Source: Escherichia coli phage NG_A1. From it: a stretch of 64,000 nt of DNA. Location of the stretch: sequence record LC788705.1, one strand, 5' to 3'. The translations under genes and the position numbers were made by a program. The notes under the pieces were generated by a model that saw only the letters and a list, made by a program, of their open reading frames with translations, ran no database searches and was not told where the DNA came from. Positions 1,944-32,684 of this stretch are shown in pieces (within the stretch, counting starts at the first letter, position 1; each line of letters opens with the position of its first letter).

Positions 1944-1945
1944 TT

Positions 1946-10544: not shown

Positions 10545-10591
10545 TGGACACACCTCCATGTGTAATCTTATGAAATTTGGCAAAAAGTCAA

Positions 10592-11256: not shown

Positions 11257-11434
11257 ATCTTTCGTGCTCCTATAAATATGGTATTTTAAAATATTTTATA
11301 ATTTGTGTAATAACCAACCATGCTTGTGACTTCCTAGAAGGACTTCTACTTTTCTTACATAGTGGTTTCTGCCAATATACCATCCAAAAAATAAAAAATT
11401 TAGTTTACTTGGATGTCTTTTTGCTTTATACTAA

Positions 11435-11701
11435 TTACAGGTAGTTAGATTGCTCTAGTTTAAATTTACAATCACCGTATTTAAGATCAAACTGACTGAG
11501 ATCCCACCACCCAAACTTAGTACGGAGCTGTACTACTGGGAAGCGATCTCCCTTAATACGAACTTTTTGAATCTTGAGGCCGTAATGTTCTTCTCCCGCA
11601 CCGCCAAAAGATTTTACAAATCCAGTACAAAATGGTTTGGGAGCAGGTGCACAACCAGATAACATAACTGCGGCAACTAGTGCAATCACAAACTTTTTCA
11701 T
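11435..11701 (-). CDS. llp: Lipoprotein Llp-like, candidate receptor-blocking superinfection-exclusion protein (88 aa)
   Basis: Signal peptide with lipobox LSGC; divergent from and adjacent to the receptor-binding protein gene; own TTGCTT-N17-TATAAT promoter. Confidence 0.7.
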   Translation of the reverse strand: MKKFVIALVAAVMLSGCAPAPKPFCTGFVKSFGGAGEEHYGLKIQKVRIKGDRFPVVQLRTKFGWWDLSQFDLKYGDCKFKLEQSNYL

Positions 11702-11732
11702 ATTTATCTCTCCATTTCTAATTTATGAATCT

Positions 11733-11761
11733 ATTATAGCAAAATAGAGGGATGAAAGCAA
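11733..11761 (-). promoter_or_regulatory. Sigma70-type early promoter for llp (TTGCTT-N17-TATAAT)
   Basis: -35 at 11756-11761 and -10 at 11733-11738 on the minus strand, 17-bp spacer. Confidence 0.65.
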
Positions 11762-11786
11762 ATACATTTTTATAATAGGAGATTAT

Positions 11787-13544
11787 ATGGGTTTTTTCGC
11801 TGGAAAATATAGCGATGGTAAGACCGTACTATCCTTAAATACTGAATCTGGTGGTGACATTAATCGTCACTATAGTCCAAATAATAATAGTATTTTTCAT
11901 AGTGATATGCCATTTGTTCTAGTTGATGGTACTTATGAGGTAGGATTAGGTGATGCCGGGAATGGGTTTTTCGTATGTCAGATGCCTCCTGATATAGTAA
12001 ATATTAAATCTAATGATCCTGGTAGAGTTATACTAACTGCTATTGAAATTAACGGCACTCACAGAGCTTTTCTTAATGGTACTCAGAGTAAAGTTGGTCA
12101 AACTATAGTTGCCACTCAAGCAGATCCCTTTAGATCTTTTGCTAGTGTTTCTCAAACCAGTGGATTTGCCTTTGGTAATAGTCTAGCATCCGGCACTTAT
12201 AATTATAATCCCTCTCTAGGGCACGAAGAATCTATCTCTAGGAGTGGTACAGGGGGTACTACGTTACATAGTACCTACCATGGGATAGTTAGGCCCGGTG
12301 CGGGAGCTCCTGTAGGTATTACTGTTGCAGAAGCTTTTGCACAATTAGGTTTTCCTATTAATAGTAGCACAGTACCTATAGATGGCAATAACCCGTACTA
12401 TTGGGATCCTGGATGGATATCACCTCTAGGAGCAGCGCATAGAGGGCATGATTGGTTTTATGTCTGCAATTCTAATATACGTGGATATGGTGGGGTTAGG
12501 CAAGGGCTCCCAGGTAATGTAAATACTATGTACCACGACGGTGGGAACAGATTTGTTTGTAGGGGATCTACTACTAATCTGGCCAACCAGTCTGGCAATC
12601 CTACGGTAATACAGGACTGGTATAATATAACTCCTACTAAGGTTATTTGGTATGTTCTTAATTTAAGGTACTCTAATAGTGGAATGAGTATTTCAGGCAA
12701 CCCCTTTACTGGTTCTGATATTCTTATATCTCCTTCTAATTTCATAATTAAAGGGGTAAGTCTCCCTAATACCGGGTATAAATTTATAAATCAGAATGCT
12801 TTTGGTAACCTAGGTTACCGTCCTGATATGGAGTATATAGGAAATAACGCAGCGTATACCGGGGTTTTTGGGGATACCACGGCAAGGTGTGAACTTGTAG
12901 GGTCTAGTAATGGAGGAGTATGGTCTCCTGTAGACTATGGTGGAGCTAAATCCCAAATTAGCATTTACAAATTCGGAGCTGGTAAGCAATGGTATGTAAA
13001 CTCTAGGGATAATACTATCGGTAATGAACACGGGGTTGTTTGGGGACCATCAGCAGTTCCATTACGACTTTTTGGTGGAAATGTAGGTAGTTCTTATATG
13101 GGAGATGATATTACTCCCAGCTACCCAGGAACGGGTGATAGATACGTTGGTTTATCAACTATTGGGCTAGGTATACCGGGTGGCAATGCTACAGTAATTC
13201 TTACCACTGAAGTTATATCAGGTAACCTTAACTGTGCAGGTGTTCCTGCTAATACATGGAATAACGGTGTGTTTCAAGTGCAAGGAAGAAGAGCATATAG
13301 CTATAGCGGCGGGGATGCAATATTCCACCAGATTTTAACGCTACCTGTGGGCTATCTAGTACCTTTTCATACTACATCTGCTTTTAGATATACACCTAAC
13401 AATGCTCTAAGTAGAAACAGTTTTATATACACTGTTAAAAATTTAGGAAATGGAAATGTAGAGTTAGGAGTAGTTATGCACGTGAGTTTGGGTAGTGCAG
13501 TTTTCCTACCTAGATTAAGAGTAACAGTTCAACGCCTTACCTAA
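11787..13544 (+). CDS. Receptor-binding tail protein, pb5/Oad-like (585 aa)
   Basis: N-terminus [41 protein letters not shown] resembles the T5 pb5 N-terminus as I recall it; divergent pairing with llp; Gly/Asn/Ser-rich. Confidence 0.6.
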
Positions 13545-15362: not shown

Positions 15363-15410
15363 GGATGGGATACTACTCAGTTGGTATCCCATTCCTGTAT
15401 TTTAAAATCC
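15363..15410 (+). terminator. Intrinsic terminator after the terminase gene
   Basis: Hairpin GGATGGGATAC...GTATCCCATTCC followed by a T-rich tract. Confidence 0.5.
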
Positions 15411-15524
15411 CCTTTACAAATTCGATACGATTATGTATACTATATTCATTGATCGGGAGAACTTCTCCCATAATAGAACGTAAACAAGAAAAATTAATGC
15501 TCTACATGGGGTGTAGGAGATTCT

Positions 15525-18981: not shown

Positions 18982-20358
18982 ATGACTATTGATATTAATA
19001 AGCTGAAAGAAGAACTTGGTCTGGGTGATCTGGCTAAATCTCTGGAAGGTCTGACCGCTGCTCAGAAAGCTCAGGAAGCTGAACGTATGCGTAAAGAGCA
19101 GGAAGAAAAAGAACTGGCTCGTATGAATGACCTGGTTTCTAAAGCTGTTGGTGAAGACCGTAAGCGTCTGGAAGAGGCTCTGGATCTGGTTAAGTCTCTG
19201 GATGAGAAATCTAAGAAGAGCGCAGAACTGTTTGCACAAACTGTAGAAAAACAACAGGAAACTATTGTTGGTCTTCAGGACGAAATTAAATCTCTGCTAA
19301 CAGCTCGTGAAGGTCGTTCCTTTGTTGGTGATAGTGTTGCTAAAGCACTGTACGGTACTCAGGAAAACTTTGAAGACGAAGTAGAAAAACTGGTTCTGTT
19401 GTCTTACGTAATGGAGAAAGGTGTATTCGAAACCGAACACGGTCAAAAACACCTGAAAGCAGTGAATCAGTCTTCTTCTGTAGAAGTTTCTAGTGAAAGC
19501 TATGAAACTATTTTCTCTCAGCGTATTATCCGTGACCTGCAGAAAGAGCTGGTAGTTGGCGCACTGTTCGAAGAACTGCCGATGTCCAGTAAGATTCTTA
19601 CTATGCTGGTTGAACCGGATGCTGGTAAAGCTACTTGGGTTGCTGCTTCTACTTATGGTACCGGTACAACTACTGGTGAGGAAGTTAAAGGCGCTCTTAA
19701 AGAGATCCACTTCAGTACTTACAAACTGGCTGCTAAGTCCTTCATTACTGATGAAACTGAAGAAGATGCAATCTTCTCCCTGCTGCCACTACTGCGTAAA
19801 CGTCTGATTGAAGCACACGCTGTTTCTATCGAAGAAGCCTTCATGACTGGTGATGGTCCCGGTAAGCCGAAAGGTCTGCTGACTCTTGCTAGTGAAGATA
19901 GTGCTAAAGTTATTACTGAAGCTAAAGCTGATGGTTCCGTACTGGTAACTGCTAAAACTATCTCTAAACTGCGTCGTAAACTGGGCCGTCATGGTCTGAA
20001 ACTGAGCAAACTGGTACTGATAGTATCTATGGATGCTTACTACGATCTGCTGGAAGACGAAGAATGGCAGGATGTTGCACAGGTTGGTAACGATGCTGTT
20101 AAACTGCAAGGTCAGGTTGGTCGTATCTATGGTCTTCCGGTTGTAGTTTCTGAATACTTCCCAGCTAAAGCAGCAGATAAAGAGTTCGCAGTTATTGTTT
20201 ATAAAGATAACTTCGTAATGCCACGCCAGCGTGCTGTTACTGTTGAACGTGAGCGCCAAGCTGGTAAACAGCGTGACGCATACTACGTTACTCAGCGTGT
20301 TAACCTGCAACGTTACTTTGCAAATGGCGTTGTATCTGGTGCTTACGCTGCATCTTAA
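18982..20358 (+). CDS. Major capsid protein precursor, pb8-like (458 aa)
   Basis: Size and position; coiled-coil-rich N-terminal scaffold-like delta domain; strongly E. coli-optimised codon usage; followed by a strong terminator. Confidence 0.85.
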   Translation: MTIDINKLKEELGLGDLAKSLEGLTAAQKAQEAERMRKEQEEKELARMNDLVSKAVGEDRKRLEEALDLVKSLDEKSKKSAELFAQTVEKQQETIVGLQDEIKSLLTAREGRSFVGDSVAKALYGTQENFEDEVEKLVLLSYVMEKGVFETEHGQKHLKAVNQSSSVEVSSESYETIFSQRIIRDLQKELVVGALFEELPMSSKILTMLVEPDAGKATWVAASTYGTGTTTGEEVKGALKEIHFSTYKLAAKSFITDETEEDAIFSLLPLLRKRLIEAHAVSIEEAFMTGDGPGKPKGLLTLASEDSAKVITEAKADGSVLVTAKTISKLRRKLGRHGLKLSKLVLIVSMDAYYDLLEDEEWQDVAQVGNDAVKLQGQVGRIYGLPVVVSEYFPAKAADKEFAVIVYKDNFVMPRQRAVTVERERQAGKQRDAYYVTQRVNLQRYFANGVVSGAYAAS

Positions 20359-20377
20359 TACAGGCTTTTCAGCCGAT

Positions 20378-20406
20378 AAGGAGAGCTTCGGCTCTCCTTT
20401 TTTATT
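20378..20406 (+). terminator. Intrinsic terminator after the major capsid gene
   Basis: Hairpin AAGGAGAGC-TTCG-GCTCTCCTT followed by TTTTTTATT. Confidence 0.8.
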
Positions 20407-20417
20407 GGGAAAAATAA

Positions 20418-20930
20418 ATGCAAATAATCACAGCTGAAGACTATAGATTATATGGCGGGTTAAAACGACCTGAATTAGAATCTGGAGTAGAGATGATGAT
20501 TACTGCTGCCAATGCGCTGATTACTAGCCTTTTAGGTATGGATGATGCTGATGCGGTAGACCAGTTAATCAATACAAAACCTACTCGTAAAAAATACTTC
20601 TTAAGTTCCCCCTCGGCTACTTCAGTAACCAAAATGACTATTAATGATAAGGAGATAGATCCCGAACAGTATAAGTTATACTCTGATGGGGTTATACTTC
20701 TTAAATTTAGTCCTCCAGAAGGTTATATGGATGTAGAGTACACACAAGGTGGATTTAACCCAATTCCTGAAGATCTCAAACTTGCAGCATGTATGCTAGT
20801 AGATCATTGGCATAAACAGGATTACCGTCAAGCTAAAACAATTGGCGGAGAAACAGTTACTTTTAATAATACTAAGTCTGGTATTCCAGAGCATATTCGT
20901 ACTATTATTGAAGTTTACAGGAGAGTATAA
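20418..20930 (+). CDS. Putative head completion/connector protein (170 aa)
   Basis: Position between capsid and tail genes. Confidence 0.4.
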   Translation: MQIITAEDYRLYGGLKRPELESGVEMMITAANALITSLLGMDDADAVDQLINTKPTRKKYFLSSPSATSVTKMTINDKEIDPEQYKLYSDGVILLKFSPPEGYMDVEYTQGGFNPIPEDLKLAACMLVDHWHKQDYRQAKTIGGETVTFNNTKSGIPEHIRTIIEVYRRV

Positions 20931-21697
20931 TGTCTCTTTCTGATTTAGCTACACAAATTATTAAGGAGCAGCTAGATAATGTTGGGCGTTCCGAGAACAA
21001 TAAGAATACTGTTGTATATTCTGTTGAAACAGGACTGAAAGATCCTACTAGAGATGGTACTGTTGCTCAGGTATCTTTTAAATTCTCAAAACCTGTATCC
21101 CAAGATCTCCTTAATGTTAGGACCGCTTCTATTCTAAAAGCAGTTTCTTCTAGCTTAGATCTAACAGGAGATTTAGGTGCTCTAGAGAATTTAATACAAG
21201 CAACCGCTGGTAAAAAATCTGCTGTAGGTAAAAAACGTTCTACTGGTAGAGTTCAAGTAAACTTTGGGGATCCTAGAGACGTAGAAGATGGATATTCTGG
21301 TGCAGTAACAGGTGCTTCTGGTCGTTTTGTATCAAATAGTAATATGAAGGTTATTCTGGAGTTGGTTGCTAAAGAATACTTAATAAAGGATATGAAAAAA
21401 GCAGGAGCTCCACTTAAATTTAGAACAGGTCGTTTTGCAAACTCTCTAAAAGTTAAAGATGTTATGCTTAGAGATGCTGGAACTAGCAAAGGTGCTCCGG
21501 AATTAAACGTTACATATAATTATATGGTACGTCCATATTCAGTATTTAATCCTGCAGTATCTACATATCGAAGATTGTCACTACGACCCTACCCAGGTGC
21601 TAGAAACCCTCAAAGACTAATTGGAGAGGCGATAGCTAAAGCTGCAAGAGACTTAATTCACTCCAGATACAAAATTAAGGTTAATCAAGGAACCTAA
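20930..21697 (+). CDS. Putative neck/tail completion protein (255 aa)
   Basis: Position; abutting start/stop with the upstream gene. Confidence 0.4.
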   Translation: MSLSDLATQIIKEQLDNVGRSENNKNTVVYSVETGLKDPTRDGTVAQVSFKFSKPVSQDLLNVRTASILKAVSSSLDLTGDLGALENLIQATAGKKSAVGKKRSTGRVQVNFGDPRDVEDGYSGAVTGASGRFVSNSNMKVILELVAKEYLIKDMKKAGAPLKFRTGRFANSLKVKDVMLRDAGTSKGAPELNVTYNYMVRPYSVFNPAVSTYRRLSLRPYPGARNPQRLIGEAIAKAARDLIHSRYKIKVNQGT

Positions 21698-21700
21698 TAA

Positions 21701-22186
21701 ATGGATCACAGAACAAGTATAGCACAAGCTCTGGTTGATCGAATAGCCAAACAAATGGATGGCTCTCAACCAGATGAATATTTTAATAACTTGTATGGAA
21801 ACGTCTCACGTCAAACTTATAAGTTTGAGGAGATACGAGAGTTTCCTTATGTTGCAGTTCATATCGGAACTGAAACTGGGCAGTATCTTCCCTCAGGTCA
21901 ACAGTGGATGTTTTTAGAACTTCCTATCCTGGTGTATGATAAAGAGAAAACAGACATTCAAGAGCAACTTGAAAAACTCGTAGCGGATATAAAAACCGTT
22001 ATTGACACAGGTGGAAATTTAGAATATACTGTTAGTAAACCTAATGGATCGACCTTCCCATGTGAGGCGACTGATATGAGCATTACATCAGTTAGTACAG
22101 ATGAGGGTCTACTGGCCCCATATGGTTTAGCAGAAATAAATGTAACAGTGAGGTATCAGCCTCCACGTAGGTCACTTCGCAGATAA
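21701..22186 (+). CDS. Putative tail terminator/completion protein (161 aa)
   Basis: Position immediately upstream of the tail tube gene. Confidence 0.4.
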   Translation: MDHRTSIAQALVDRIAKQMDGSQPDEYFNNLYGNVSRQTYKFEEIREFPYVAVHIGTETGQYLPSGQQWMFLELPILVYDKEKTDIQEQLEKLVADIKTVIDTGGNLEYTVSKPNGSTFPCEATDMSITSVSTDEGLLAPYGLAEINVTVRYQPPRRSLRR

Positions 22187-22212
22187 GTTACAGATTAGGA
22201 GAAAATAATTAA

Positions 22213-23616
22213 ATGTCTTTACAACTATTACGTAATACTCGAATCTTCGTGTCTACGGTTAAGACTGGTCATAATAAGACCAACACGCAAGAGATTCTAG
22301 TTCAGGATGATATTTCTTGGGGTCAGGACAGTAACTCAACAGATATTACTGTTAATGAAGCTGGTCCGCGTCCAACTCGTGGTTCTAAACGTTTTAATGA
22401 CTCTTTAAACGCGGCTGAGTGGAGTTTCTCTACTTATATCCTGCCATATAAAGATAAAACTACTAACAAACAGATTGTCCCTGACTATATGTTATGGCAT
22501 GCTCTTTCTAGCGGTAAAGCTCTTAACTTAGAAGGTGATACAGGAGCACATAATAACGAAACCAATTTTATGGTTAACTTTAAAGATAACGCGTACCACG
22601 AACTGGCAATGCTGCATATCTACATCCTGACTGACAAAGCATGGAGTTACATCGACTCTTGCCAGATCAACCAGGCAGAAGTTAACGTTGATATTGAGGA
22701 TATTGGTCGTGTAACTTGGTCAGGTAATGGTAATCAGCTCATCCCGTTAGATAGCCAACCATTTGACCCAGATGCATTAGGTATTGATGATGAAACCTAT
22801 ATGACTATTCAGAGTTCTTACATTAAGAACAAACTGACTATCCTGAAAATTAAGGATATGGATTCTGGTAAGGCATATGACATTCCTATTACTGGTGGTA
22901 CGTTCACCATTAATAACAACATCACGTACCTAACCCCGAATATTATGTCACGTGTAAATATTCCAATCGGCTCATTTACGGGTGCGTTTGAGTTAACGGG
23001 TTCTTTGACAGCTTACCTTAATGATAAGTCTCTTGGTTCTATGGAACTGTACAAAGATCTGATTAAAACCCTTAAGGTAGTTAACCGTTTTGAAATCGCA
23101 CTTATTTTGGGTGGAGAATATGATGAGCGACCAGCAGCTGTGTTAGTTGCTAAACAGGCGCACGTTAATATTCCTACTATTGAGACTGATGATGTACTTG
23201 GTACTTCAGTAGAGTTTAAGGCTATTCCTACAGATTTGGATACTGGTGACGAAGGATACTTAGGCTTCTCTAACAAGTATACCAAAACTACAATAGCGAA
23301 TCTAATTGCTACCGGAGATGGTGCTAAAACTCCACCAAAACTAGTCGAATCAATCACAGTTAAATCTGCTGCTGATGCTACTTCTGTAACAAATAGTAAT
23401 ACTTTACAGATGTCTGTTGAGGTAACACCTCCAGAAGCTACTAATAAGGCTGTGACTTGGTCTATTTCTAGTGGTAACGCAGCTACAATTGATGCAGAAT
23501 CTGGGTTATTAACAGCTGATGCCTCTAAAACTGGTGCAGTTACTGTGAAGGCTGTAGCTAAAGATGGTTCTGGTGTAGAAGGTACTAAAACTATCACAGT
23601 TAGTGCTGGTGGTTAA
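22213..23616 (+). CDS. Major tail tube protein with C-terminal Ig-like (BIG2-type) domain, pb6-like (467 aa)
   Basis: C-terminal Ig-like segment TNSNTLQMSVEVTPPEATNKAVTWSISSGNAATIDAESGLLTA; AGGAG RBS. Confidence 0.8.
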   Translation: MSLQLLRNTRIFVSTVKTGHNKTNTQEILVQDDISWGQDSNSTDITVNEAGPRPTRGSKRFNDSLNAAEWSFSTYILPYKDKTTNKQIVPDYMLWHALSSGKALNLEGDTGAHNNETNFMVNFKDNAYHELAMLHIYILTDKAWSYIDSCQINQAEVNVDIEDIGRVTWSGNGNQLIPLDSQPFDPDALGIDDETYMTIQSSYIKNKLTILKIKDMDSGKAYDIPITGGTFTINNNITYLTPNIMSRVNIPIGSFTGAFELTGSLTAYLNDKSLGSMELYKDLIKTLKVVNRFEIALILGGEYDERPAAVLVAKQAHVNIPTIETDDVLGTSVEFKAIPTDLDTGDEGYLGFSNKYTKTTIANLIATGDGAKTPPKLVESITVKSAADATSVTNSNTLQMSVEVTPPEATNKAVTWSISSGNAATIDAESGLLTADASKTGAVTVKAVAKDGSGVEGTKTITVSAGG

Positions 23617-23620
23617 ATAA

Positions 23621-24523
23621 ATGTACTACTCTCTAATGCGAGAGTCAAAAGTTATAGTTGAGTATGATGGTAGGGCATTTCATTTTGATGCCCTATCAAA
23701 CTATGATATACAGACTTCCTACGAGGAATTCAAGACTCTTCGTAGGACTGTTCATCGTAGAACTAACTATGCAGACTCTATTATAAATGCTCAAACCCCC
23801 TCTTCTATCTCTCTAGCAATAAATTTCAGTAATACTCTTACAGAGGCTAACTTCTTTGAATGGTTAGGTTTTGATAGAAAAGGTAATACTTTCTTACTCC
23901 CACTATATAGTAGTAATATTGAACCTATTATGTTCAATATCTATATAGTAAATAAAGATAATAACTGTGTATATTTTGAAAACTGTTATGTATCTACGGT
24001 AGATTTTTCTTTAGATAAGAACATACCAATTCTTAATGTTGGTATTGAGTCTGGGAAATTCTCAGAAGTATCTACCTATAGAGAAGCAGCTTCTATTATA
24101 CAGGGTGAAGTAATGTCTTACAGCCCAGTAATAGCTTCTACTAATGGCAGCATCTTACCCGGTCTTATTTCTGCCTCTTTATCTTTCCAACAGCAGTGCT
24201 CCTGGAGAGAGGATAAGAGTGTTTTTGATATAAATAAAATTTATAATAATAAAAGAGCTTATGTAAATGAAATGAATGCTTCGGCAACCATTTCTCTATA
24301 TTACTTAAAACGTTTTGCAGGAGATATGGTTTACAATATCGAACCGGAGACAGATGTACCTTTAAATATAAGAAATAATAATATTTCTATAGATTTTCCT
24401 TCAGCACGTATTACAAAACGCCTAGATTTCTCAGATGTGTATAGAGTTGAGTGGGATATTATACCTACTGCTTCTTCAGACCCAGTGAGAATAGATTTCT
24501 TTGGAGAAATTAAAAATGATTAA
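23621..24523 (+). CDS. Hypothetical structural-module protein (300 aa)
   Basis: ORF track; position between tail tube and tape measure genes. Confidence 0.4.
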   Translation: MYYSLMRESKVIVEYDGRAFHFDALSNYDIQTSYEEFKTLRRTVHRRTNYADSIINAQTPSSISLAINFSNTLTEANFFEWLGFDRKGNTFLLPLYSSNIEPIMFNIYIVNKDNNCVYFENCYVSTVDFSLDKNIPILNVGIESGKFSEVSTYREAASIIQGEVMSYSPVIASTNGSILPGLISASLSFQQQCSWREDKSVFDINKIYNNKRAYVNEMNASATISLYYLKRFAGDMVYNIEPETDVPLNIRNNNISIDFPSARITKRLDFSDVYRVEWDIIPTASSDPVRIDFFGEIKND

Positions 24524-24920
24524 TTTAAAAGATATTACTCTTGATACTCGTACTATTACTCTTTCCTACCCAGGTATGCCGAACTTTAAATTAGAACTTA
24601 ACTATATGTCTCGTGCTACCTCTAAACGTGTTATTTCTTCTGCTAAACGCGATGAATGGGTTAATGGTACTTTGATTCAGGTACAGGATGATGATAAGTT
24701 CATTGAAGCCTTCGTTGACGCAGCTATTAAAGGTTGGACCGGTTTGACTGTAGGTGACGTTGAAAAACTGATGCTGATTGAAACAGATGCTGATCCTGCT
24801 ACTGAAGTTCCTTTTAGCCGCGATAATGCTGTAATGCTCATGCAGAACTCTGCTGCGTTTGATTCTTGGATCAACCAGACAGTGTTCCACTTAGACACTT
24901 TTCGTAGCCCAAAAGCGTAA
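24501..24920 (+). CDS. Putative tail assembly chaperone (139 aa)
   Basis: Position upstream of the tape measure gene; acidic. Confidence 0.4.
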   Translation: MEKLKMINLKDITLDTRTITLSYPGMPNFKLELNYMSRATSKRVISSAKRDEWVNGTLIQVQDDDKFIEAFVDAAIKGWTGLTVGDVEKLMLIETDADPATEVPFSRDNAVMLMQNSAAFDSWINQTVFHLDTFRSPKA

Positions 24921-24981
24921 AGAACTCCTAGATGCTGTTGCTGATTTTGCAGATAAGTGTATTAAAAGCTCAGCATCTAAA

Positions 24982-25350
24982 ATGACTAAACAACAATATT
25001 TAATACTTTGTGAATCAATGGGTATAGAGCCTGATCCTAAGGCCATGCCTGTTGAACTTGAAGACTTTCCACCTATTGTAGCTACTAGTATGAATATTTA
25101 TAACAGTCTAATTGACTGCTTCATACCAGGTGACTTTCCTATCTTTATAGGTAAAGATAAGGCTGCTCTAGGTGTTTTATTTGATATTTATGGGATTACT
25201 GATCCTATAGAGAAAGAATTTGTTCTACACATTATCAATATATTTGATGCTAAAGCTGTAGATGCTGCACGTAAACGTGCTGAGAAGCATAAACCGCAAA
25301 ACGGAAGGATTCCTAACGTTAAGCCACATGCTAGATCTCGTGCACGGTAA
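24982..25350 (+). CDS. Putative tail assembly chaperone (122 aa)
   Basis: Position immediately upstream of the tape measure gene; basic C-terminus. Confidence 0.4.
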   Translation: MTKQQYLILCESMGIEPDPKAMPVELEDFPPIVATSMNIYNSLIDCFIPGDFPIFIGKDKAALGVLFDIYGITDPIEKEFVLHIINIFDAKAVDAARKRAEKHKPQNGRIPNVKPHARSRAR

Positions 25351-25384
25351 AAGTTTCCTCCAATGGGCGTTCCACGATGAGGCT

Positions 25385-25418
25385 TGGCTCTGGGTGATTT
25401 GCCCAGAGCCTTTTTTAT
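25385..25418 (+). terminator. Intrinsic terminator/attenuator before the tape measure gene
   Basis: Hairpin GGCTCTGGG-TGATTT-GCCCAGAGCC followed by TTTTTTATT. Confidence 0.7.
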
Positions 25419-25433
25419 TGGGAAAAATAAAAC

Positions 25434-28400
25434 ATGACTGATAAGCTAATACGAGAATTACTAATAGACGTTAAACAGAAGGGGGCAACTCGTACTGCAA
25501 AGTCTATTGAAAACGTATCTGATGCGTTGGAAAATGCTGCTGCTGCTTCCGAACTGACAAATGAGCAGTTAGGTAAAATGCCCAGAACTCTTTATTCCAT
25601 TGAGAGGGCAGCAGATAGAGCAGCGAAAAGTCTTACTAAAATGCAAGCTAGTAGGGGTATGGCTGGTATCACTAAATCCATTGATGGTATTGGTGATAAG
25701 CTAGACTACCTGGCTATCCAGCTTATTGAAGTAACAGATAAACTAGAAATTGGATTCGATGGAGTTTCTAGATCTGTTAAAACAATGGGTAATGATGTTG
25801 CAGCTGCAACAGAAAAAGTCCAGGATAGATTATATGATACTAATAGAGCATTAGGTGGCACAGCTAGGGGTTTTAATGATACTGCTGGTGCCGCTGGTAG
25901 AGCTTCTAGAGCTATTGGTAATACTTCTGGTTCAGCACGTGGTGCAACTCGTGATTTTGCGGCAATGGCTAAGATCGGTGGTAGTCTACCTATTATGTAC
26001 GCAGCTCTTGCTTCCAACATCTTCGTTTTGCAATCAGCATTTGAACAACTTAAACTAGGTGATCAGCTAAATCGTCTAGAAAAATTTGGTGTTATAGTAG
26101 GTACTCAGACAGGTACTCCTGTTCAGTCCCTTGCTAGATCACTACAAGAGGCAGCTGGCTATGCAATCTCTTTTGAAGAAGCTATGAGGCAAGCATCCTC
26201 AGCGTCCGCTTATGGATTTGACGCCGAACAACTTAATAAATTTGGTTTAGTAGCTCGTCGTGCTGCTGCTGTTCTTGGCGTTGATATGACTGATGCACTT
26301 AACCGTGTAATTAAGGGTGTATCTAAACAAGAAATCGAACTTCTGGATGAACTTGGTGTTACTATTCGTCTTAATGATGCTTATGCTGATTACGTTAAGC
26401 AGTTAAATGCTGCAAACACAGGTATAACATATAATATTAACAGCCTTACTACTTTCCAGAAACAGCAGGCGTATGCTAATGCTGTTATAGCAGAGTCTAC
26501 TAAACGTTTTGGCTACTTAGATGAAGTTTTACGTGCTACTCCGTGGGAGCAATTTGCCGCTAATGCTGATGCCGCACTGAGAAAGATTCAGCAGGCTGCT
26601 GCTAAATACTTAGGGCCCGTAATTGATGCTATCAACACAGTATTTTATACTTCTCAGGCTTCTGTATCTGCTGAAGCAGCTAGAGCTCAAGAAAAAACTA
26701 ATAGACAGATAGATCCTACCAACGTTGGTGCTGTTGCTTTAAGTTTAGCCGCTTCTGAAGAAGGGTATAATAAAGCTCTAGATATGTATAAGGAATCTCT
26801 TGATAAGCGTAATAAGCTAAAATCTGAGTTCGATAAACGAATGGAACAAGCAGATTTCTATACAAAATTAGCTATACGTCAAGTTGGTGAAGGTATTCCT
26901 GTTGGTCTTGCAGCAGCAGGTGCTTCGGAGGCCAATAAGCAATTTGTAGCAGAAACTGCAGCTATGGGTCTACAAGTAACTAGACTTGGTAAGGAAGTAG
27001 AGGATTCTACAGAGAATCTCAATGCTTGGAAATCAGCGTATCAAGCTGCTGGGGCCGCTGCTGCAAAGGCTAGTCCAGAGTTTCAGAAGCAAATTAATCT
27101 ACAGAGAGATACTACTGATCCTGATGCTGTATACGATTTTAACTCTACTGTATTAAAAGGACTAACTGAGCAGCAGAAAGCGTACAATCAGACTAAGAAA
27201 ACGGCTAGTGACTTAGCTAATGACATACAGAACGTTGCTCAGAATACAGATACTGCTGCTAAAACTAGTGCTACTTTAGCAGATGCTATAAAAAACATAG
27301 AATCTCTATCTCTAGGTACTGGTAAGAGTGCTGATGAATATGTTAAAAACCTTAATCTGGGTTATAACACCCTGTCTGAAATGAAAACTGCATCTCAGGC
27401 TCTATCTGAGTATGTTAAACTAACTGGTAATGAAACTAAAAATCAGTTAGCAGTTCAACAGAAGATAGCTGATGTATACAATCAAACTAAGGATAAGGAA
27501 AAGGCTCAGGAAGCTGGTAGACGTTTAGAGTTGCAACAGTTAGAAGAGCAAGAAGCTGCTTTACGCCGTGTTCTTCAAACAAACCAGGGGAATAAAGCTG
27601 TTGAGAAAGAAATTGAAAAAATTCAGCTGGAGAAACTTAAACTTACCAATCAGGGTATGGAGGCCCAGAAGAAGGTTAAGGATTATACAGATAAAATCCT
27701 GGGTGTAGATCGTGAGATAGCTCTCTTAAATAACCGTACTATGACAGATACTCAGTATCGTCTAGCACAGTTAAATCTTGAATTGACCATTGAAAAAGAG
27801 AAGTACGAATGGTATACAAAACAAGCTGATAAACAGAAGGAGGCGGAACAGTCTAGACGTGCTCAAGCCCAAATTGAACGTGAAATCTGGAAATTCCGCC
27901 AAGATCAGATTGCTTCAATGGCTGCTGGTAGAGAGGAAGAACAGCAAAGACAATTTACTACTAAACCATTAATGGGAAATGCGGAGCGCTTACAGGAACA
28001 GCTAAAATTATATGAAGACTTAAAGCAGAAAACATTAGGTAATGCTGCGGCACAAGCGGAGTATAATAAAAAGATAGCTGAAACTAGGGCACAACTAGCA
28101 GGTTTAAGGGCACAGAGAAATGCGGAGATGCAAGCTTCTGTTGGATCTTCTGTAGGTGCTGTATATACTCCTACAACTGGACTATCTGGAGAAGATAAAG
28201 ATTTTGCTGATATGCAAAATAGAATGGCTTCTTATGACCAGGCAATCTCTAAATTATCTGAGCTAAACTCTGAAGCAACCGCTGTGGCTCAAAGTATGGG
28301 TAATCTAACTAATGCCATGATCCAGTTCTCCCAGGGGTCTTTAGATACTACTTCCCTGATTGCTTCTGGTATGCAAACCGTATCTTCTATGATACAGTAT

Positions 28401-29114
28401 AGTACCAACCAGCAGGTTAGTGCAATTGATCAGGCTATTGCAGCAGAGCAGAAACGTGATGGTAAATCAGAAGCATCTAAAGCTAAGTTGAAGAAGTTGG
28501 AAGCTGAAAAGCTGAAGATTCAACAAGACGCAGCTAAGAAGCAGATTATCATCCAAACTGCAGTAGCTGTAATGCAGGCAGCCACCGCTGTTCCATATCC
28601 GTTCTCTATTCCACTAATGGTTGCGGCAGGTTTAGCGGGTGCATTGGCATTAGCACAAGCATCTTCTGCATCTGGTATGTCAAGTATTGCTGATTCTGGA
28701 GCGGATACAACTAGTTACCTAACCTTAGGAGAGCGTCAGAAGAATATAGATGTGTCTATGTCTGCTAATGCTGGTGAATTATCTTATATCCGTGGTGATA
28801 AAGGCATAGGCGGTGCTAACTCTTTCGTTCCTCGTGCTGAGGGTGGTAATATGTACCCTGGGGTTAGCTATCAAATGGGTGAGCATGGTACAGAAGTAGT
28901 TACCCCTATGGTTCCTATGAAAGCTACGCCTAATGATGAGCTAAAAACCTCATCTAACTCAACTTCAGGAAGACCTATCATCTTGAATATTAGTGCTATG
29001 GATGCTGCAAGTTTTAGAGAGTTTGCTTCTAGTAATAGTGGTGCTCTAAGAGACGCAGTAGAATTAGCTCTGAATGAGAACGGTGCTAGTCTGAAAACAT
29101 TAGGAAATTCTTAA
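25434..29114 (+). CDS. Tail tape measure protein, pb2-like (1226 aa)
   Basis: Very long Ala/Gln/Lys-rich coiled-coil protein with hydrophobic segment near the C-terminus; size close to T5 pb2 as I recall. Confidence 0.85.
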   Translation: MTDKLIRELLIDVKQKGATRTAKSIENVSDALENAAAASELTNEQLGKMPRTLYSIERAADRAAKSLTKMQASRGMAGITKSIDGIGDKLDYLAIQLIEVTDKLEIGFDGVSRSVKTMGNDVAAATEKVQDRLYDTNRALGGTARGFNDTAGAAGRASRAIGNTSGSARGATRDFAAMAKIGGSLPIMYAALASNIFVLQSAFEQLKLGDQLNRLEKFGVIVGTQTGTPVQSLARSLQEAAGYAISFEEAMRQASSASAYGFDAEQLNKFGLVARRAAAVLGVDMTDALNRVIKGVSKQEIELLDELGVTIRLNDAYADYVKQLNAANTGITYNINSLTTFQKQQAYANAVIAESTKRFGYLDEVLRATPWEQFAANADAALRKIQQAAAKYLGPVIDAINTVFYTSQASVSAEAARAQEKTNRQIDPTNVGAVALSLAASEEGYNKALDMYKESLDKRNKLKSEFDKRMEQADFYTKLAIRQVGEGIPVGLAAAGASEANKQFVAETAAMGLQVTRLGKEVEDSTENLNAWKSAYQAAGAAAAKASPEFQKQINLQRDTTDPDAVYDFNSTVLKGLTEQQKAYNQTKKTASDLANDIQNVAQNTDTAAKTSATLADAIKNIESLSLGTGKSADEYVKNLNLGYNTLSEMKTASQALSEYVKLTGNETKNQLAVQQKIADVYNQTKDKEKAQEAGRRLELQQLEEQEAALRRVLQTNQGNKAVEKEIEKIQLEKLKLTNQGMEAQKKVKDYTDKILGVDREIALLNNRTMTDTQYRLAQLNLELTIEKEKYEWYTKQADKQKEAEQSRRAQAQIEREIWKFRQDQIASMAAGREEEQQRQFTTKPLMGNAERLQEQLKLYEDLKQKTLGNAAAQAEYNKKIAETRAQLAGLRAQRNAEMQASVGSSVGAVYTPTTGLSGEDKDFADMQNRMASYDQAISKLSELNSEATAVAQSMGNLTNAMIQFSQGSLDTTSLIASGMQTVSSMIQYSTNQQVSAIDQAIAAEQKRDGKSEASKAKLKKLEAEKLKIQQDAAKKQIIIQTAVAVMQAATAVPYPFSIPLMVAAGLAGALALAQASSASGMSSIADSGADTTSYLTLGERQKNIDVSMSANAGELSYIRGDKGIGGANSFVPRAEGGNMYPGVSYQMGEHGTEVVTPMVPMKATPNDELKTSSNSTSGRPIILNISAMDAASFREFASSNSGALRDAVELALNENGASLKTLGNS

Positions 29115-29121
29115 AACTGGA

Positions 29122-29148
29122 GGAGGACTTTGAGTCCTCCTTTTCTTT
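29122..29148 (+). terminator. Intrinsic terminator after the tape measure gene
   Basis: Hairpin GGAGGAC-TTTGA-GTCCTCC followed by TTTTCTTT. Confidence 0.65.
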
Positions 29149-29223
29149 ATGGAAAAATAAAAATTTCTTGATAAAATTTTCTAATACTATTATAATATTG
29201 TTATTAAAGAGGAGAAATTAACT

Positions 29224-29838
29224 ATGAGATTACCAGACCCATACACGAATCCAGAACTTTCAGGCTTAGGATTCGAAAGTGTTAACCTGATTGATAATGA
29301 CCCAGTAATTCGTGATGAGTTACCAAATGGTAAAGTTAACGAAGTTAAGGTATCTGCTCAATACTGGGGTATAAATATTTCTTATCCAGAATTATTTCCA
29401 GATGAATATAGTGTTCTAGATGCTTTTATTCTAGAATACAAAAGGACTGGTGGTTATATAGATGTTATATTACCCCAATACGAAGCTTTTAGAGTTAGAG
29501 GTAATACTAGTCTAGTAAATATACCTGCTGGACAGAAGGGTTCTAATATAACTATGGATACAAAAGGACTTCTTACAGGTACTCCAAAACCGGGGGATCT
29601 ATTTAAGCTGTCTAACCACCCAAAAGTATATAAAATAACATCATTTAACAAATCAGGTAATACATGGTCTATAAACTTATACCCTGATTTATTTATAACT
29701 ACTACTGGAGCGGAGAAGCCAGTATTTAATGGAATACTATTTAGAACAAAACTCATGAATGGTGATGCTTTTGGATCTACACTAAATAATAACGGAACAT
29801 ATTCCAACATCTCATTAAATTTACGGGAAAGTCTATGA
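29224..29838 (+). CDS. Distal tail protein (Dit), pb9-like (204 aa)
   Basis: Size and position directly after the tape measure gene; AAGAGGAG RBS. Confidence 0.65.
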   Translation: MRLPDPYTNPELSGLGFESVNLIDNDPVIRDELPNGKVNEVKVSAQYWGINISYPELFPDEYSVLDAFILEYKRTGGYIDVILPQYEAFRVRGNTSLVNIPAGQKGSNITMDTKGLLTGTPKPGDLFKLSNHPKVYKITSFNKSGNTWSINLYPDLFITTTGAEKPVFNGILFRTKLMNGDAFGSTLNNNGTYSNISLNLRESL

Positions 29839-32684
29839 AAAAAATATTAGATAGTGCTAGAAACTACTTAAAAAATAATAGCAGAATAAAAACTGCTAGT
29901 CTAATTTCTCTAGAATTACCCGGCTCTACTGGTACTAGTACTGCTTTTATTTACTTAACTGACTATTTTAGAGATGTACTATATAATGGTATTTTGTACC
30001 AGGCAGGTAAAGTTAAGTCTATTAGCTCACACAAACAAAATAGAGATTTATCTATTGGTAGTCTATCTTTTACTATTACTGGTACAGCACAAGATGAAGT
30101 ACTAAAACTAGTACAAAATGGTGTATCCTTCTTAGATAGAACAGTATCAATTCATCAAGCAATTATTACTGAGGATGGTTCTATTCTACCAGTAGACCCA
30201 GATACAAATGGTCCTTTACTGTATTTTAGGGGGAGAATTACTGGAGGAGGTATTAAAGATAACATTAGTACCTCTGGAGTAGGAACCTCTACAATTACCT
30301 GGAATTGTTCTAACCAATTCTATGACTTTGATAGAGTTAATGGTAGATATACTGATGACGCTTCCCATAGGGGGCTTGAAGTTGTAGCAGGACAATTAGT
30401 TCCATCTAACGGAGCTAAAAGACCTGAGTACCAAGAAGACTATGGGTTCTTTCATGCTAATAAAAGTATATCTATACTAGCAAAGTACCAAGTACAGGAA
30501 GAAAGGTATAAGCTAAAATCAAAGAAAAAACTATTTGGCTTATCTAGAAGCTATAGCCTTAAAAAGTACTATGAAACTGTTACTAAGGAAGTAGATATAG
30601 ATTTTAACCTTGCTGCTAAATATATACCAGTAGTTTATGGTGTGCAGAAAATACCGGGAATACCTATTTTTGCGGATACAGAACTACACAATCCTAATAT
30701 AGTTTATGTAGTATATGCCTTTGCTGAAGGGGAGATAGACGGTTTTCTTGATTTTTCCTTTGGCGATAACCCTATGATTTGTATGAATGATAATGATAGT
30801 TCTTCCAGAACCTGCTTTGGTGTTAAAAAAGTGGCTGGGGACACCATGCAAAGAATAGCGTCAGGAACACCTTCTAGTAGTCCTTCCGTGCATGGGCAGG
30901 AGTATAAGTATAATGATGGGAATGGTGACATAAGAATTTGGACGTATCATGGAAAACCTGACCAAACGGCTTCTGAAGTACTAGTAGATATAGCTAAAGA
31001 ACGTGGGTTCTACCTTCAGAATATGAATGGCAATGGACCGGAGTACTGGGATGCTAGGTATAAACTACTAGATACTGCATACGCAGTGGTGCGCTTCACT
31101 ATTAATGAAAATAGAACTGAGATTCCTGAAGTTAGTGCTGAAATTCAAGGTAAAAAAGTAAAAGTCTATCATTCTGATGGTAGAGTAACTGCTAATAGTA
31201 CTAGTTTAAATGGTATTTGGCAAACACTTGATTACTTAACCTCTGATAGATATGGCGCTAATATTACCATTGATCAGTTCCCCCTTCAGCAATTAATACA
31301 GGAAGCAGCTATTTTAGATATTATAGATGAATCCTACCAAGTATCTTGGCAGCCATATTGGAGATACGTTGGGTGGACTGATCCACTAGCAGAAAATAGA
31401 CAAATAGTACAAATGAATACTATTCTGGATACATCTGAATCAGTATTTAAAAATGTGCAAGGTTTGTTAGAGTCCTATGGTGGGGCTATTAACAATTTAT
31501 CTGGCCAGTATAGGGTTACTGTAGAAAAATACTCTAATACTCCATTAGAGATTAATTTTCTAGATACTTACGGTGATTTGGAGCTATCTGATACTACTGG
31601 TAGAAATAAATTCAACTCAGTTCAAGCATCTATTGTGGATCCTGCCCTTAGTTGGAAAACTAATGCCATTACATTCTATAACTCCAAGTATAAGGAACAG
31701 GACAAGAACCTAGATAAAAAACTACAACTATCTTTTGCTAATATTACTAATTATTATACTGCAAGAAGTTTTGCGGATAGGGAACTTAAGAAATCCAGAT
31801 ACTCAAGAACACTTTCTTTCTCATTGCCATATCAATTCATTGGTATTGAGCCTAATGATGCTATTGCATTCACGTATGATCGTTATGGATGGAACAAAAA
31901 GTATTTCCTAGTTGATGAGGTTGAAAATTCTAGGGAAGGAAAGATAAATGTTACTCTACAGGAGTATGGAGAAGATGTATTCATCAACTCTGAGCAGGTT
32001 GATAATAGCGGTAATGATATTCCTGATATTAGTAATAATGTCCTTCCTCCTAGAGACTTTAAGTATACCCCTACTCCTGGCGGTTTAGTAGGCTCTATAG
32101 GTAAAAATGGTGAGTTATCCTGGCTTCCGAGTCTAACCAATAATGTAGTTTATTACTCTATTGTACATTCAGGCCATGCCGAACCTTACATAGTACAACA
32201 GTTAGAGACCAACCCTAACGAACGTATGATCCAAGAAATAATTGGAGAACCAGCAGGTCTGGCTATATTTGAGATAAGGGCAGTAGATATTAATGGTAGA
32301 AGAAGTTCCCCGGTGACTCTGTCTATAGAACTTAACTCTGCTAAAAACCTTAGTGTAGTATCCAATTTTAGGGTAATTAATACTGCTTCCGGAGATGTAA
32401 CTGAGTTTGTTGGCCCAGATGTGAAACTAGCCTGGGATAGAATACCTGAAGAAGATATAATAGAGAGTATATTTTATACCCTTGAAATACACGATTCACA
32501 AAATAGGATGTTAAGAAGTGTACGTATTGAAAATCAGTACACTTATGACTATTTATTAACGTATAATAAGGCAGACTTCGCTCTCCAGAACAGCGGTGCT
32601 CTAGGTATAAATAGAAAATTATATTTTCGTATTAGGGCTGAAGGGGATGATGGAGAACAGTCTGTGGAGTGGGCATCCATTTAA
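29835..32684 (+). CDS. Baseplate hub/tail tip protein, pb3-like (949 aa)
   Basis: Size and position; overlapping start/stop with neighbours. Confidence 0.7.
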   Translation: MKKILDSARNYLKNNSRIKTASLISLELPGSTGTSTAFIYLTDYFRDVLYNGILYQAGKVKSISSHKQNRDLSIGSLSFTITGTAQDEVLKLVQNGVSFLDRTVSIHQAIITEDGSILPVDPDTNGPLLYFRGRITGGGIKDNISTSGVGTSTITWNCSNQFYDFDRVNGRYTDDASHRGLEVVAGQLVPSNGAKRPEYQEDYGFFHANKSISILAKYQVQEERYKLKSKKKLFGLSRSYSLKKYYETVTKEVDIDFNLAAKYIPVVYGVQKIPGIPIFADTELHNPNIVYVVYAFAEGEIDGFLDFSFGDNPMICMNDNDSSSRTCFGVKKVAGDTMQRIASGTPSSSPSVHGQEYKYNDGNGDIRIWTYHGKPDQTASEVLVDIAKERGFYLQNMNGNGPEYWDARYKLLDTAYAVVRFTINENRTEIPEVSAEIQGKKVKVYHSDGRVTANSTSLNGIWQTLDYLTSDRYGANITIDQFPLQQLIQEAAILDIIDESYQVSWQPYWRYVGWTDPLAENRQIVQMNTILDTSESVFKNVQGLLESYGGAINNLSGQYRVTVEKYSNTPLEINFLDTYGDLELSDTTGRNKFNSVQASIVDPALSWKTNAITFYNSKYKEQDKNLDKKLQLSFANITNYYTARSFADRELKKSRYSRTLSFSLPYQFIGIEPNDAIAFTYDRYGWNKKYFLVDEVENSREGKINVTLQEYGEDVFINSEQVDNSGNDIPDISNNVLPPRDFKYTPTPGGLVGSIGKNGELSWLPSLTNNVVYYSIVHSGHAEPYIVQQLETNPNERMIQEIIGEPAGLAIFEIRAVDINGRRSSPVTLSIELNSAKNLSVVSNFRVINTASGDVTEFVGPDVKLAWDRIPEEDIIESIFYTLEIHDSQNRMLRSVRIENQYTYDYLLTYNKADFALQNSGALGINRKLYFRIRAEGDDGEQSVEWASI

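Follow-up and report, generated by a model that had tools for sequence, protein, structure and literature searches.

Three junctions in the late region of Escherichia coli phage NG_A1 combine a hairpin, a T-rich tail and a short A-rich motif, and at two of them a start codon follows at once. A preliminary description took this recurrence for a reused punctuation element coupling termination or attenuation to re-initiation, or else for a late promoter or processing signal. We asked whether one element is used three times or whether ordinary elements are juxtaposed. The analysis was performed on a 64,000-nucleotide stretch (record LC788705.1, hereafter the window). The phage is a T5-like Tequintavirus, 98.5% identical to Escherichia phage vB_EcoD-Elw. 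The three hairpins, called T1, T2 and T3 at sites 1, 2 and 3, are putative intrinsic (rho-independent) terminators dividing the late virion-gene cluster into expression units (Table 1). The shared string TTATTGGGAAAAATAAA is a composite: a terminator U-tract, then either a Shine-Dalgarno (SD) sequence with its spacer or the A block of a promoter. We consider it very probable that sites 1 and 2 are leaky intrinsic terminators followed by a weak SD, and that site 3 is a terminator followed by the A block of promoter PG25. The elements are ordinary, mostly already annotated in T5, and essentially known.

Table 1. Coordinates in the window of the features of the late region and of one look-alike.
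Feature	Position	Strand	Remarks
Major head protein gene	18982-20358	+	T1 hairpin starts 20 nt past the stop
T1 hairpin, AAGGAGAGC-UUCG-GCUCUCCUU	20378-20399	+	9 pairs, 5 GC; about -15.5 kcal/mol
T1 U-tract, TTTTTTATT	20398-20406	+	First two T also close the stem
Weak SD GGGA (20407-20410) and A-rich spacer, adaptor p144 homologue	20407-20417	+	Anti-SD duplex -4.2 kcal/mol
Head-tail adaptor gene, p144 homologue, 170 aa	20418-20930	+	Directly after T1
Late promoter PJ5, TTGACA-17-TATACT	22002-22030	+	Hexamer scan; T5 annotation 'promoter P-J 5'
Tape-measure chaperone ORF	24982-25350	+	T2 hairpin starts 36 nt past the stop
T2 hairpin, GGCUCUGGGUG-AUU-UGCCCAGAGCC	25386-25410	+	11 pairs, 7 GC; about -20 kcal/mol
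T2 U-tract, TTTTTTATT	25411-25419	+	Sequence, folding
Weak SD GGGA (25420-25423) and A-rich spacer, pb2	25420-25433	+	Anti-SD duplex -4.2 kcal/mol; 9/12 spacer bases A
Tape measure protein pb2 gene	25434-29114	+	T3 hairpin starts 5 nt past the stop
T3 hairpin, GGAGGAGGAC-UUU-GAGUCCUCCUUU	29119-29143	+	Tail UCUUUAU to 29149
A-rich upstream block of PG25, GGAAAAATAAAAATTTC	29151-29167	+	UP-element-like -43 block; inside T5 'promoter P-G 25'
PG25 core, TTGATA-17-TATAAT	29168-29196	+	11/12 hexamer matches
Distal tail protein gene	ATG 29224	+	Driven by PG25, as are the tail-tip genes
Look-alike: AGAAAAATAAAAATTTTAG with TTGCTA-18-TATAAT, early promoter P31B	45097-45145	-	T5 annotation; small hairpin precedes

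Hairpins with T-rich tails were found where the preliminary description had placed them. By folding, the stems are 9-11 bp long with energies of -15 to -20 kcal/mol, and the tails read UUUUUUAUU at T1 and T2 and UUUUCUUUAU at T3. On the transcribed strand, each hairpin comes after a stop codon (stops at 20358, 25350 and 29114). Among the plus-strand terminator-like sites between 12 and 32 kb, the three occupy the first, third and fourth ranks, and the second-ranked site (15363-15394) has a poor T tail. The T5 RefSeq record NC_005859 annotates all three as rho-independent terminators, worded 'putative', at 101563-101586 (T1), 96553-96587 (T2) and 92087-92113 (T3). Searches against Rfam gave no match at the gathering threshold anywhere in the window. 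Two further candidates around T2 were rejected. A leader-peptide mini-ORF across the T2 5′ arm, AUGAGGCUUGGCUCUGGGUGA, lacks an SD and is not conserved in Pectobacterium phage DU_PP_V or Vibrio phage phi3. For an anti-SD-like block upstream of T2, UUUCCUCCAA, pairing with the pb2 SD, duplex energies were not clearly better than with the shuffled block (fraction of shuffles at least as good, 0.04-0.71 in eight lineages).

The same organization was found in relatives. Lineages of the Demerecviridae were compared, namely Tequintavirus, Klebsiella Sugarlandvirus, Enterobacter KKP_3711, Pectobacterium DU_PP_V and My1, Vibrio phi3 and Vibrio 70E34-3, and a hairpin was present at each of the three syntenic sites in 7-9 lineages. 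All three positions carry a GC-rich hairpin followed by a U-tract, with energies of -11 to -22 kcal/mol across lineages. It is the structure of the terminators, not their sequence, that is conserved. In the T2 stem, five of the ten pairs show double compensatory changes (six lineages), and at T3 every lineage has its own GC-rich hairpin at the same position. Conserved positions, compensating stem changes and the T5 annotation together bear out the earlier view that the hairpins are terminators. The layout of the late cluster, terminators plus a restart at PG25, holds from coliphages to Vibrio phages.

Downstream of the stems, C-TTTTTTATT or a one-base variant of it is found at sites 1 and 2 in all lineages compared except the Vibrio 70E34-3-type phages. 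In distant relatives, the 12 nt past the U-tract are swapped for other SD and spacer sequences whereas the terminator is kept; Sugarlandvirus (in part), KKP_3711, DU_PP_V, My1 and the Vibrio phages carry other or altered sequence in place of the 12-mer. The post-U-tract sequence varies by lineage (GGAGGTAATAAAATG in phi3, AGAGGTATATAATG in DU_PP_V for example) and always comprises an SD, an A/T spacer and an ATG. At site 1, the SD region of the Pectobacterium and Vibrio relatives is GAGG or GGAGG.

These comparisons bear on a reading of the junctions as processing or stability sites. A host endonuclease, RNase E for instance, would cut the late RNA in the single-stranded A/U stretch, the upstream hairpin would keep 3′ exonucleases off the capsid or tail-tube message, and differential decay, replacing or adding to termination, would set the protein ratios. 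The presence of a stable hairpin directly before an unstructured A/U-rich segment, and the conservation of this arrangement, are what such a mechanism would predict; it also fits the same copy-number logic and is compatible with leaky termination. However, intrinsic terminators canonically take the form of a hairpin with 6-8 U directly behind it, and in distant relatives the U-tract is conserved whereas the A-rich stretch is not. Moreover, inspection by eye gave no good match to the RNase E motif RN↓WUU. Processing is in our view an unlikely basis for the junctions, and termination is retained below as the proposed function of the hairpins.

We then considered the motif itself. The window contains GGAAAAATAAA exactly three times (20408, 25421 and 29151), always on the plus strand and each time just 3′ of one of the three strongest plus-strand hairpin and U-tract sites of the late region, so that a near-identical motif indeed follows the hairpins. 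Shuffled sequences gave an expectation of 0.23 copies, and none of 100 shuffles reached three. With all copies located at terminators, a chance U-tract/A-tract origin is ruled out. The complete 118-kb genome of Elw, the closest relative, holds the same three copies only, which rules out a punctuation element used genome-wide. Matches with one mismatch correspond to unrelated ribosome-binding sites, coding sequence or promoter P31B. The likeness between sites 1 and 2 goes further: the exact 23-mer CCTTTTTTATTGGGAAAAATAAA, at 20396-20418 and 25409-25431, is the longest string common to both regions and is present in only two copies in 118 kb. The next ATG is close in these two cases, as previously described. 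At site 1 the last A of the motif overlaps ATG 20418, and at site 2 ATG 25434 comes 2 nt past the motif. At site 3, the next ATG (29224) is 62 nt further on. The 11-mer has different roles, since it belongs to a ribosome-binding region at sites 1 and 2 and to the upstream A block of a promoter at site 3. Recurrence of the 23-mer and of the 11-mer is not an annotated feature of T5.

Comparison with T5 shows how far the parts can be separated. The T5 record has the three terminators, P-G25 and P-J5 at the same positions with essentially the same sequences, and across the motif its sites 1 and 3 do not differ from those of the window. At site 2, the T5 hairpin and U-tract are as in the window, and the homing-endonuclease gene T5.141 is inserted in place of the 12-mer. 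Because T5 is viable with this replacement, we counted it in favour of a composite of ordinary parts. The idea of one reused module is not sustained, as the 12-mer is replaced in distant relatives and displaced by T5.141 at T5 site 2 while the terminators persist. Among the sequences compared, only Tequintavirus and Epseptimavirus have the 23-nt identity between sites 1 and 2, and deeper conservation is restricted to the U-tract.

Nevertheless, exact identity over 23 nt next to unrelated hairpins exceeds the needs of a generic U-tract and ribosome-binding site, and may reflect shared ancestry or parallel selection. It could also be explained by a dedicated composite cis-element, in which some factor of the phage or the host would recognise the whole 23-mer and couple read-through to the translation of low-copy proteins. 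Candidates would be an Hfq/CsrA-type binder on the GGA and (ARN)n tract, or a weak UUUUAUU/AAUAAAA hairpin with the SD in its loop. Besides the identity despite unrelated stems, the 23-mer hardly varies among 28 Tequintavirus and Epseptimavirus loci, and complementarity between U-tract and A-tract recurs in several lineages, as read by eye. The near-invariance is uninformative, however, because it matches a genome-wide identity of about 90-99%. The mini-hairpin UUUUAUU-GGGAAA-AAUAAAA reaches only -1.5 to -2.3 kcal/mol and was rejected, since 32/200 and 48/200 shuffles fold as well. The low copy number in 118 kb and the loss or replacement of the 12-mer in T5 and other relatives also argue against recognition as a unit. 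Finally, variants at sites 1 and 2 do not co-occur. ATTATTAGG in L003 and L025, GG in L018 and L020, and a shorter site-2 A-run in L021, for example, are not mirrored at the other site, and ongoing gene conversion between the two sites was rejected on the same ground. We give little credence to a dedicated element recognised as a unit. It is equally doubtful that the 23-nt T1/T2 junction would be a purpose-built attenuator and operator for scarce virion proteins, through which an RNA-binding factor of phage or host, or the weak mini-hairpin with GGGA in its loop, would jointly tune how far the adaptor and tape-measure genes are read into and translated, although conserved non-coding blocks upstream of the hairpins (GGC-loop-GCC at T1, UUUCCUCCAA...GAGG at T2) might assist.

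As composites, sites 1 and 2 join the terminator U-tract (CUUUUUUAUU) to an ordinary, weak translation start. In agreement with the preliminary description, GGGA is their sole SD-like element; within the SD and spacer stretch GGGAAAAATAAA it precedes the ATG by 7 nt at site 1 and by 10 nt at site 2. Its pairing energy compares with a median of -6.4 kcal/mol for 48 gene starts and falls within the weakest 21%. A-rich spacers are usual in this genome (48 gene starts), and the leader at both sites is unstructured and A-rich. The GenBank record of Salmonella phage Shivani marks GGA as the ribosome-binding site at site 1 and likewise annotates one at site 2. The ORF starting at ATG 20418 has the same length as T5 p144, whose atomic model covers all 170 residues (PMC11313276). 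Sites 1 and 2 resemble A/U-rich, weakly SD-dependent initiation regions, with a short purine core 7-10 nt before the ATG in an unstructured leader, and are unusual only in that the leader starts at a terminator U-tract. Across the late genes, SD strength does not follow virion copy number tightly.

Site 3 is organized differently. There, termination would be followed by re-initiation of transcription, as the motif lies inside the annotated late promoter P-G25. The proposed coupling of termination to re-initiation holds at this site, where late transcripts are known, and fails as a description of a single module reused at all three. The T5 'promoter P-G 25' region (92013-92087) equals the window sequence save for one spacer substitution. 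The PG25 -35 and -10 hexamers and the A block are conserved in all seven lineages, with the A block at the same distance from the -35 hexamer. In the window, GGAAAAATAAAAATTTC stops 1 nt short of the -35 hexamer. An A block lies 4-6 nt upstream of the -35 hexamer in seven of the window's strong promoters, the A5-6 run ending at that distance at PG25, P31B and other window promoters. The upstream blocks of PG25 and early promoter P31B have a 15-mer, GAAAAATAAAAATTT, in common. The T5-like promoter consensus has AAAAATT at -43 (PMC3326045), and a published alignment of T5 promoters indicates UP elements (Fig. S5 of PMC7472727). The PG25 block accordingly resembles the UP elements of strong sigma-70 promoters, of the rrnB P1 type, in its A-rich -43 block; it is UP-like by sequence, and differs from known UP elements in sharing the distal half of its UP region with the T3 U-tract. 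By primer extension, PG25 transcripts appear from 30 min after infection (Klimuk 2020, PMC7472727), and both PJ5 and PG25 have late kinetics in vivo (PMC7472727).

The late-promoter interpretation applies to site 3, where -35 and -10 hexamers are in register, and not to sites 1 and 2. The hexamer scan revealed no -35/-10 pair in the interval from T1 to ATG 20418 or from T2 to ATG 25434. Sites 1 and 2 could still be promoters if the A block served as UP element for hexamers within the first downstream codons, as PJ5 lies in a coding region. The same 11-mer is the A block of a promoter at site 3, and manual reading places a CTGATA at site 2 5 nt past the A block, in the register of PG25. No acceptable -10 lies 16-18 nt further, however, since the essential A at -11 or T at -7 is missing from ACTAAT, CTAATA and TAATAG alike. 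A -35 is absent from site 1, no promoter came out of the scan at either site, and T5 has none annotated there. In addition, a transcript starting from there would miss the start codon of the gene. We regard such promoters as extremely improbable, and return to transcription through the terminators.

With no promoter separating T1 and T2 from the next essential gene, both terminators would have to be leaky. The adaptor p144 and pb2 genes would then be transcribed solely by read-through. With the UUCG tetraloop of T1 and eight U in nine at the tails of T1 and T2, both hairpins look strong, so that the sequence does not plainly point to substantial read-through. T1 would end a unit behind the major capsid gene. 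T2 would end the tail-tube and chaperone block fed by PJ5, which sits within the tail terminator gene and feeds the major tail protein gene; the PJ5 transcription unit terminates at T2. T3 would end the unit after the tape measure gene, and the sigma-70 promoter PG25 would restart transcription for the tail-tip genes. The anatomy of the junctions, their conservation and the match to the T5 annotation are direct observations, and the late activity of PG25 is as published (PMC7472727).

The virion contains 775 copies of the major capsid protein (MCP), 12 of the adaptor p144 and 6 of p142, and the tube is made of 40 trimeric rings (PMC11313276). From hundreds-copy to few-copy proteins, expression would be stepped down by partial termination combined with weak initiation, as GGGA in an A-rich leader abutting the U-tract would lower translation start. 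We take the T5 tape measure to be a trimer, which gives a tube to tape-measure ratio of 120:3. Partial termination, and the setting of protein ratios as its purpose, are what we infer from this arrangement.

A comparable case is T-phi of phage T7, a leaky terminator located after gene 10, behind the major capsid gene. The likeness lies in a hairpin and U-tract following the most abundant virion gene, with low-copy essential genes downstream that need read-through. However, T7 relies on a phage-encoded RNA polymerase and the T5 late genes on the sigma-70 enzyme of the host, and read-through in T5 is a prediction. Regulatory elements of the T5 late region are reportedly the subject of Brunel et al. 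1983, and Gentz and Bujard are said to have characterised P-G25 and P-J5 in 1985. Beyond annotation quality these assignments matter little, except that they show how a T5-type late cluster is partitioned. If read-through at T1 and T2 were quantified, they would offer a simple case of a phage relying on host polymerase only (transcription of T5 late genes by the sigma-70 enzyme, PMC7472727) and setting ratios of 775:12 and 120:3. The window phage differs from T5 in having no T5.141, so that its site-2 terminator abuts the ribosome site of the tape-measure gene, and this gene is isolated between two terminators.

A megablast search with window 20000-30000 matched 548 phage records, the closest being Escherichia phage vB_EcoD-Elw (Tequintavirus; 98.5% over the full length). 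The Elw annotation and the ORF list place the three junctions (sites 1, 2 and 3, with hairpins T1, T2 and T3 respectively) within the late plus-strand virion-gene cluster. The cluster reads as late promoter(s) upstream of pb5, then on as far as the capsid gene and T1; adaptor p144, tail completion protein and p142, with late promoter PJ5 inside p142; tube protein pb6, minor tail protein, chaperones and T2; and tape measure pb2, T3, late promoter PG25 and the tail-tip genes.

Features at and around the three junctions and elsewhere in the window
Feature	Position	Strand	Sequence or elements
Hairpin and promoter-like site	15363-15441	+	TTTACA-17-TATACT
Major head protein gene, before site 1	18982-20358	+	
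GGC-loop-GCC stem-loop	20359-20377	+	GGCTTTTCAGCC
23-mer, site 1	20396-20418		CCTTTTTTATTGGGAAAAATAAA
Head-tail adaptor gene (170 aa), after site 1	20418-20930	+	
PJ5	22002-30	+	TTGACA-17-TATACT
Tape-measure chaperone ORF, before site 2	24982-25350	+	
Spacer, chaperone stop codon to T2	25351-25385	+	AAGTTTCCTCCAATGGGCGTTCCACGATGAGGCTT
23-mer, site 2	25409-25431		CCTTTTTTATTGGGAAAAATAAA
Tape measure gene, between sites 2 and 3	25434-29114	+	
PG25	29168-96	+	TTGATA-17-TATAAT
Distal tail protein gene, after site 3	29224-29838	+	
Palindromic hairpin	39245-39274	both	AAACCCCAGAGGG-ATAT-CCCTCTGGGGTTT
Early-region terminator hairpin	43902-43933	-	AGAGGGGCTTCGGCCCCTTT
Early promoter P31B	45145-45097	-	TTGCTA-18-TATAAT
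Tandem early promoters P31A and P31B	45097-45226	-	P31A: TTGGCA-17-TATAAT

The motif sequences following the three hairpins are as the preliminary description gave them, with an exact 23-mer common to sites 1 and 2. The 11-mer GGAAAAATAAA occurs three times in the window (0.23 expected; three copies reached in 0 of 100 shuffles), always just downstream of the T1, T2 and T3 hairpins, which rules out a chance origin. The complete 118-kb Elw genome, joined from three pieces for the motif search, contains the same three copies and no further exact one; sites with one mismatch belong to ordinary ribosome sites, to coding sequence or, in one case, to an early promoter. The shuffle test and the Elw search therefore indicate a real, non-random, three-copy pattern, not punctuation spread across the genome.

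In a terminator scan of 12-32 kb, T1-T3 ranked first, third and fourth among plus-strand sites, the second being 15363-15394, which has a poor T tail. The folded segments form stable hairpins (whole-segment z-scores -2.7 to -4.1). The junctions were compared in 28 Tequintavirus and Epseptimavirus contigs and, more distantly, in Klebsiella VAC51, Enterobacter KKP_3711, Pectobacterium DU_PP_V and My1, and Vibrio phi3 and 70E34-3; one further IMG/VR lineage was compared at site 2 only. A GC-rich hairpin with a U-tract (-11 to -22 kcal/mol) was present in every lineage at each site compared. The T3 stem sequence differs in each lineage, and 5 of the 10 T2 pairs show double compensatory changes. 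This pattern is typical of selection on structure and is consistent with terminators. The earlier reading of the hairpins as terminators thus agrees both with their conserved structure and with the T5 reference genome, where a 'putative rho-independent transcription terminator' is annotated at all three positions. A small stem-loop directly precedes T1, which is therefore a structure of two hairpins in tandem: in the relatives from Klebsiella, Enterobacter and Pectobacterium the stem of this stem-loop is constant and its loop varies.

At site 3, the motif copy is the A block adjoining the PG25 -35 hexamer, so that the suggestion of a late promoter proved correct there. GGAAAAATAAAAATTTC ends one base upstream of this hexamer, and the T5 reference genome carries 'promoter P-G 25' immediately behind its counterpart of T3, as well as 'promoter P-J 5', which lies within the tail terminator gene and precedes the major tail gene. 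The A block is kept at PG25 in 7/7 lineages, and an A5-6 block lies 4-6 nt upstream of the -35 in seven strong promoters of the window. The 15-mer GAAAAATAAAAATTT at PG25 has one other exact copy in the genome, upstream of the P31B -35; P31B stands in tandem with P31A, with a small hairpin (TTTCGGA...TCCGAA) between them. The A block with the -35 and -10 of PG25 is the published T5-type architecture: TTGCTw/TATAATA with 'AAAAATT' at -43 (Niu et al. 2012, PMC3326045), and a UP element marked in the T5 promoter alignment of Klimuk et al. 2020 (PMC7472727), whose primer extension detected PJ5 and PG25 transcripts from 30 min post-infection, accumulating afterwards.

Sites 1 and 2 have another composition. 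Deep conservation is limited to C-UUUUUUAUU, the terminator's own U-tract. Among the lineages compared, the following 12 nt, GGGAAAAATAAA, were found in Tequintavirus and Epseptimavirus only, being replaced by GGGTAAAATATG and GGAAAAAATCATG in Klebsiella, ATGGGTACTACATG and GTCTAAAATACAGGTGAATAATG in KKP_3711, AGAGGTATATAATG and GGAAAAATTATG in DU_PP_V, TGGAGTAAATATG and TGAGGTAATAAAATG in My1, and GGAGGTAATAAAATG and AGGAGAAAACTCATAATG in phi3. Every replacement consists of a Shine-Dalgarno (SD) sequence, an A/T spacer and a start codon. Spacers rich in A, for example GGAGAAAATAATTAAATG, are usual in this genome. The GGGA of both sites pairs with the anti-SD at just -4.2 kcal/mol, a value in the weakest 21% (48 mapped gene starts; median -6.4 kcal/mol), and the record of Salmonella phage Shivani (KP143763) marks GGA as ribosome-binding site for the adaptor gene as well as for the tape measure gene. 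In T5, the site 2 hairpin and CCTTTTTTATT are intact and immediately followed by T5.141, a homing-endonuclease gene of 753 bp, whose insertion point is precisely the junction of the T2 U-tract with the tape measure start (4739-5549 in the T5 reference L031; NC_005859 95777-96587), at the equivalent of window 25411-25434; the tape measure leader there differs (caGGAAAAcattagATG). The terminator and the 12-mer are therefore separable in a viable phage. T5.141 is absent at site 2 from the window and from 27/28 other T5-like contigs compared.

This loss of the 12-mer in relatives and in T5 makes a dedicated 23-mer operator improbable, as do its two copies only, the independent origin of the variants at the two sites and a candidate U-tract/A-tract hairpin (-1.5 to -2.3 kcal/mol) no better than shuffles. 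The late-promoter reading fails at these sites: the promoter scan found no promoter-like hexamers in the stretches from T1 to ATG 20418 and from T2 to ATG 25434, and hand alignment to the PG25 register gave no usable -10. Given the absent -10 elements, hidden promoters there are extremely unlikely. That the hairpin with its A/U stretch serves in RNA processing and stability is rather unlikely, though such a role may coexist with termination. An Rfam search gave no match at gathering threshold within the window. Most likely, the shared string is a composite of three ordinary signals, from terminator, SD/spacer and promoter parts, A/T-rich and adjacent by happenstance.

Neither the adaptor gene nor the tape measure gene has its own promoter, so we infer that RNA polymerase reads through T1 and T2 into them. 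In T7 a leaky terminator follows the capsid gene, and by analogy the T1 arrangement may work alike. The T5 tape measure is trimeric. Terminators that stop only part of the transcripts, each with a weak SD behind it, would be the obvious route to step-downs in protein copy with host polymerase alone, such as that from capsid to adaptor. The virion holds 775 capsid subunits, 12 adaptor and 6 p142 copies, and 40 trimeric tube rings (PMC11313276). T3 with PG25 would close one transcription unit and open the next.

The two T5 promoters were characterised decades ago. The three terminators, PG25 and PJ5 are already known, being annotated in T5 (NC_005859). Two points are mildly new: in T5-like coliphages the junctions at T1 and T2 match exactly across 23 nt, and the three-terminator layout is retained as far as Vibrio Demerecviridae.

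Other features of the window were observed. The spacer before T2 is non-coding, since its inter-lineage indels are not multiples of three. It keeps the order UUUC(C/U)UCCAA, GGGCGUUCCACG, UGAGG and could form a CCUC...GAGG hairpin. The relatives from Klebsiella, Enterobacter, Pectobacterium and Vibrio retain its anti-SD-like block TTTC(C/T)TCCAA, which did not pair with the pb2 SD clearly better than shuffled controls did. Downstream of the large terminase gene, a 13-bp hairpin whose T tail is poor and a promoter-like site form another terminator-then-promoter junction of the late cluster, and Shivani has a terminator annotated at the corresponding position. The pre-early/terminal-repeat part (1-12000) is enriched in sigma-70 promoter-like sites (55 vs 37.7 +/- 6.5 in shuffles), unlike the other parts of the window. 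The terminator-abutting-start layout also occurs in the early region, as the minus-strand terminator hairpin is followed by 11 nt (CTTTTTAACAT) and the ATG of a D12-like recombination gene, whose SD is nearly absent (-1.7 kcal/mol); T5 has a terminator annotated at its counterpart. Finally, the palindromic hairpin, a perfect 13-bp one, lies at the meeting point of the late (+) and early (-) clusters, and is probably the counterpart of the 'efficient bidirectional rho-independent terminator' annotated between these clusters at T5 81641-81680.
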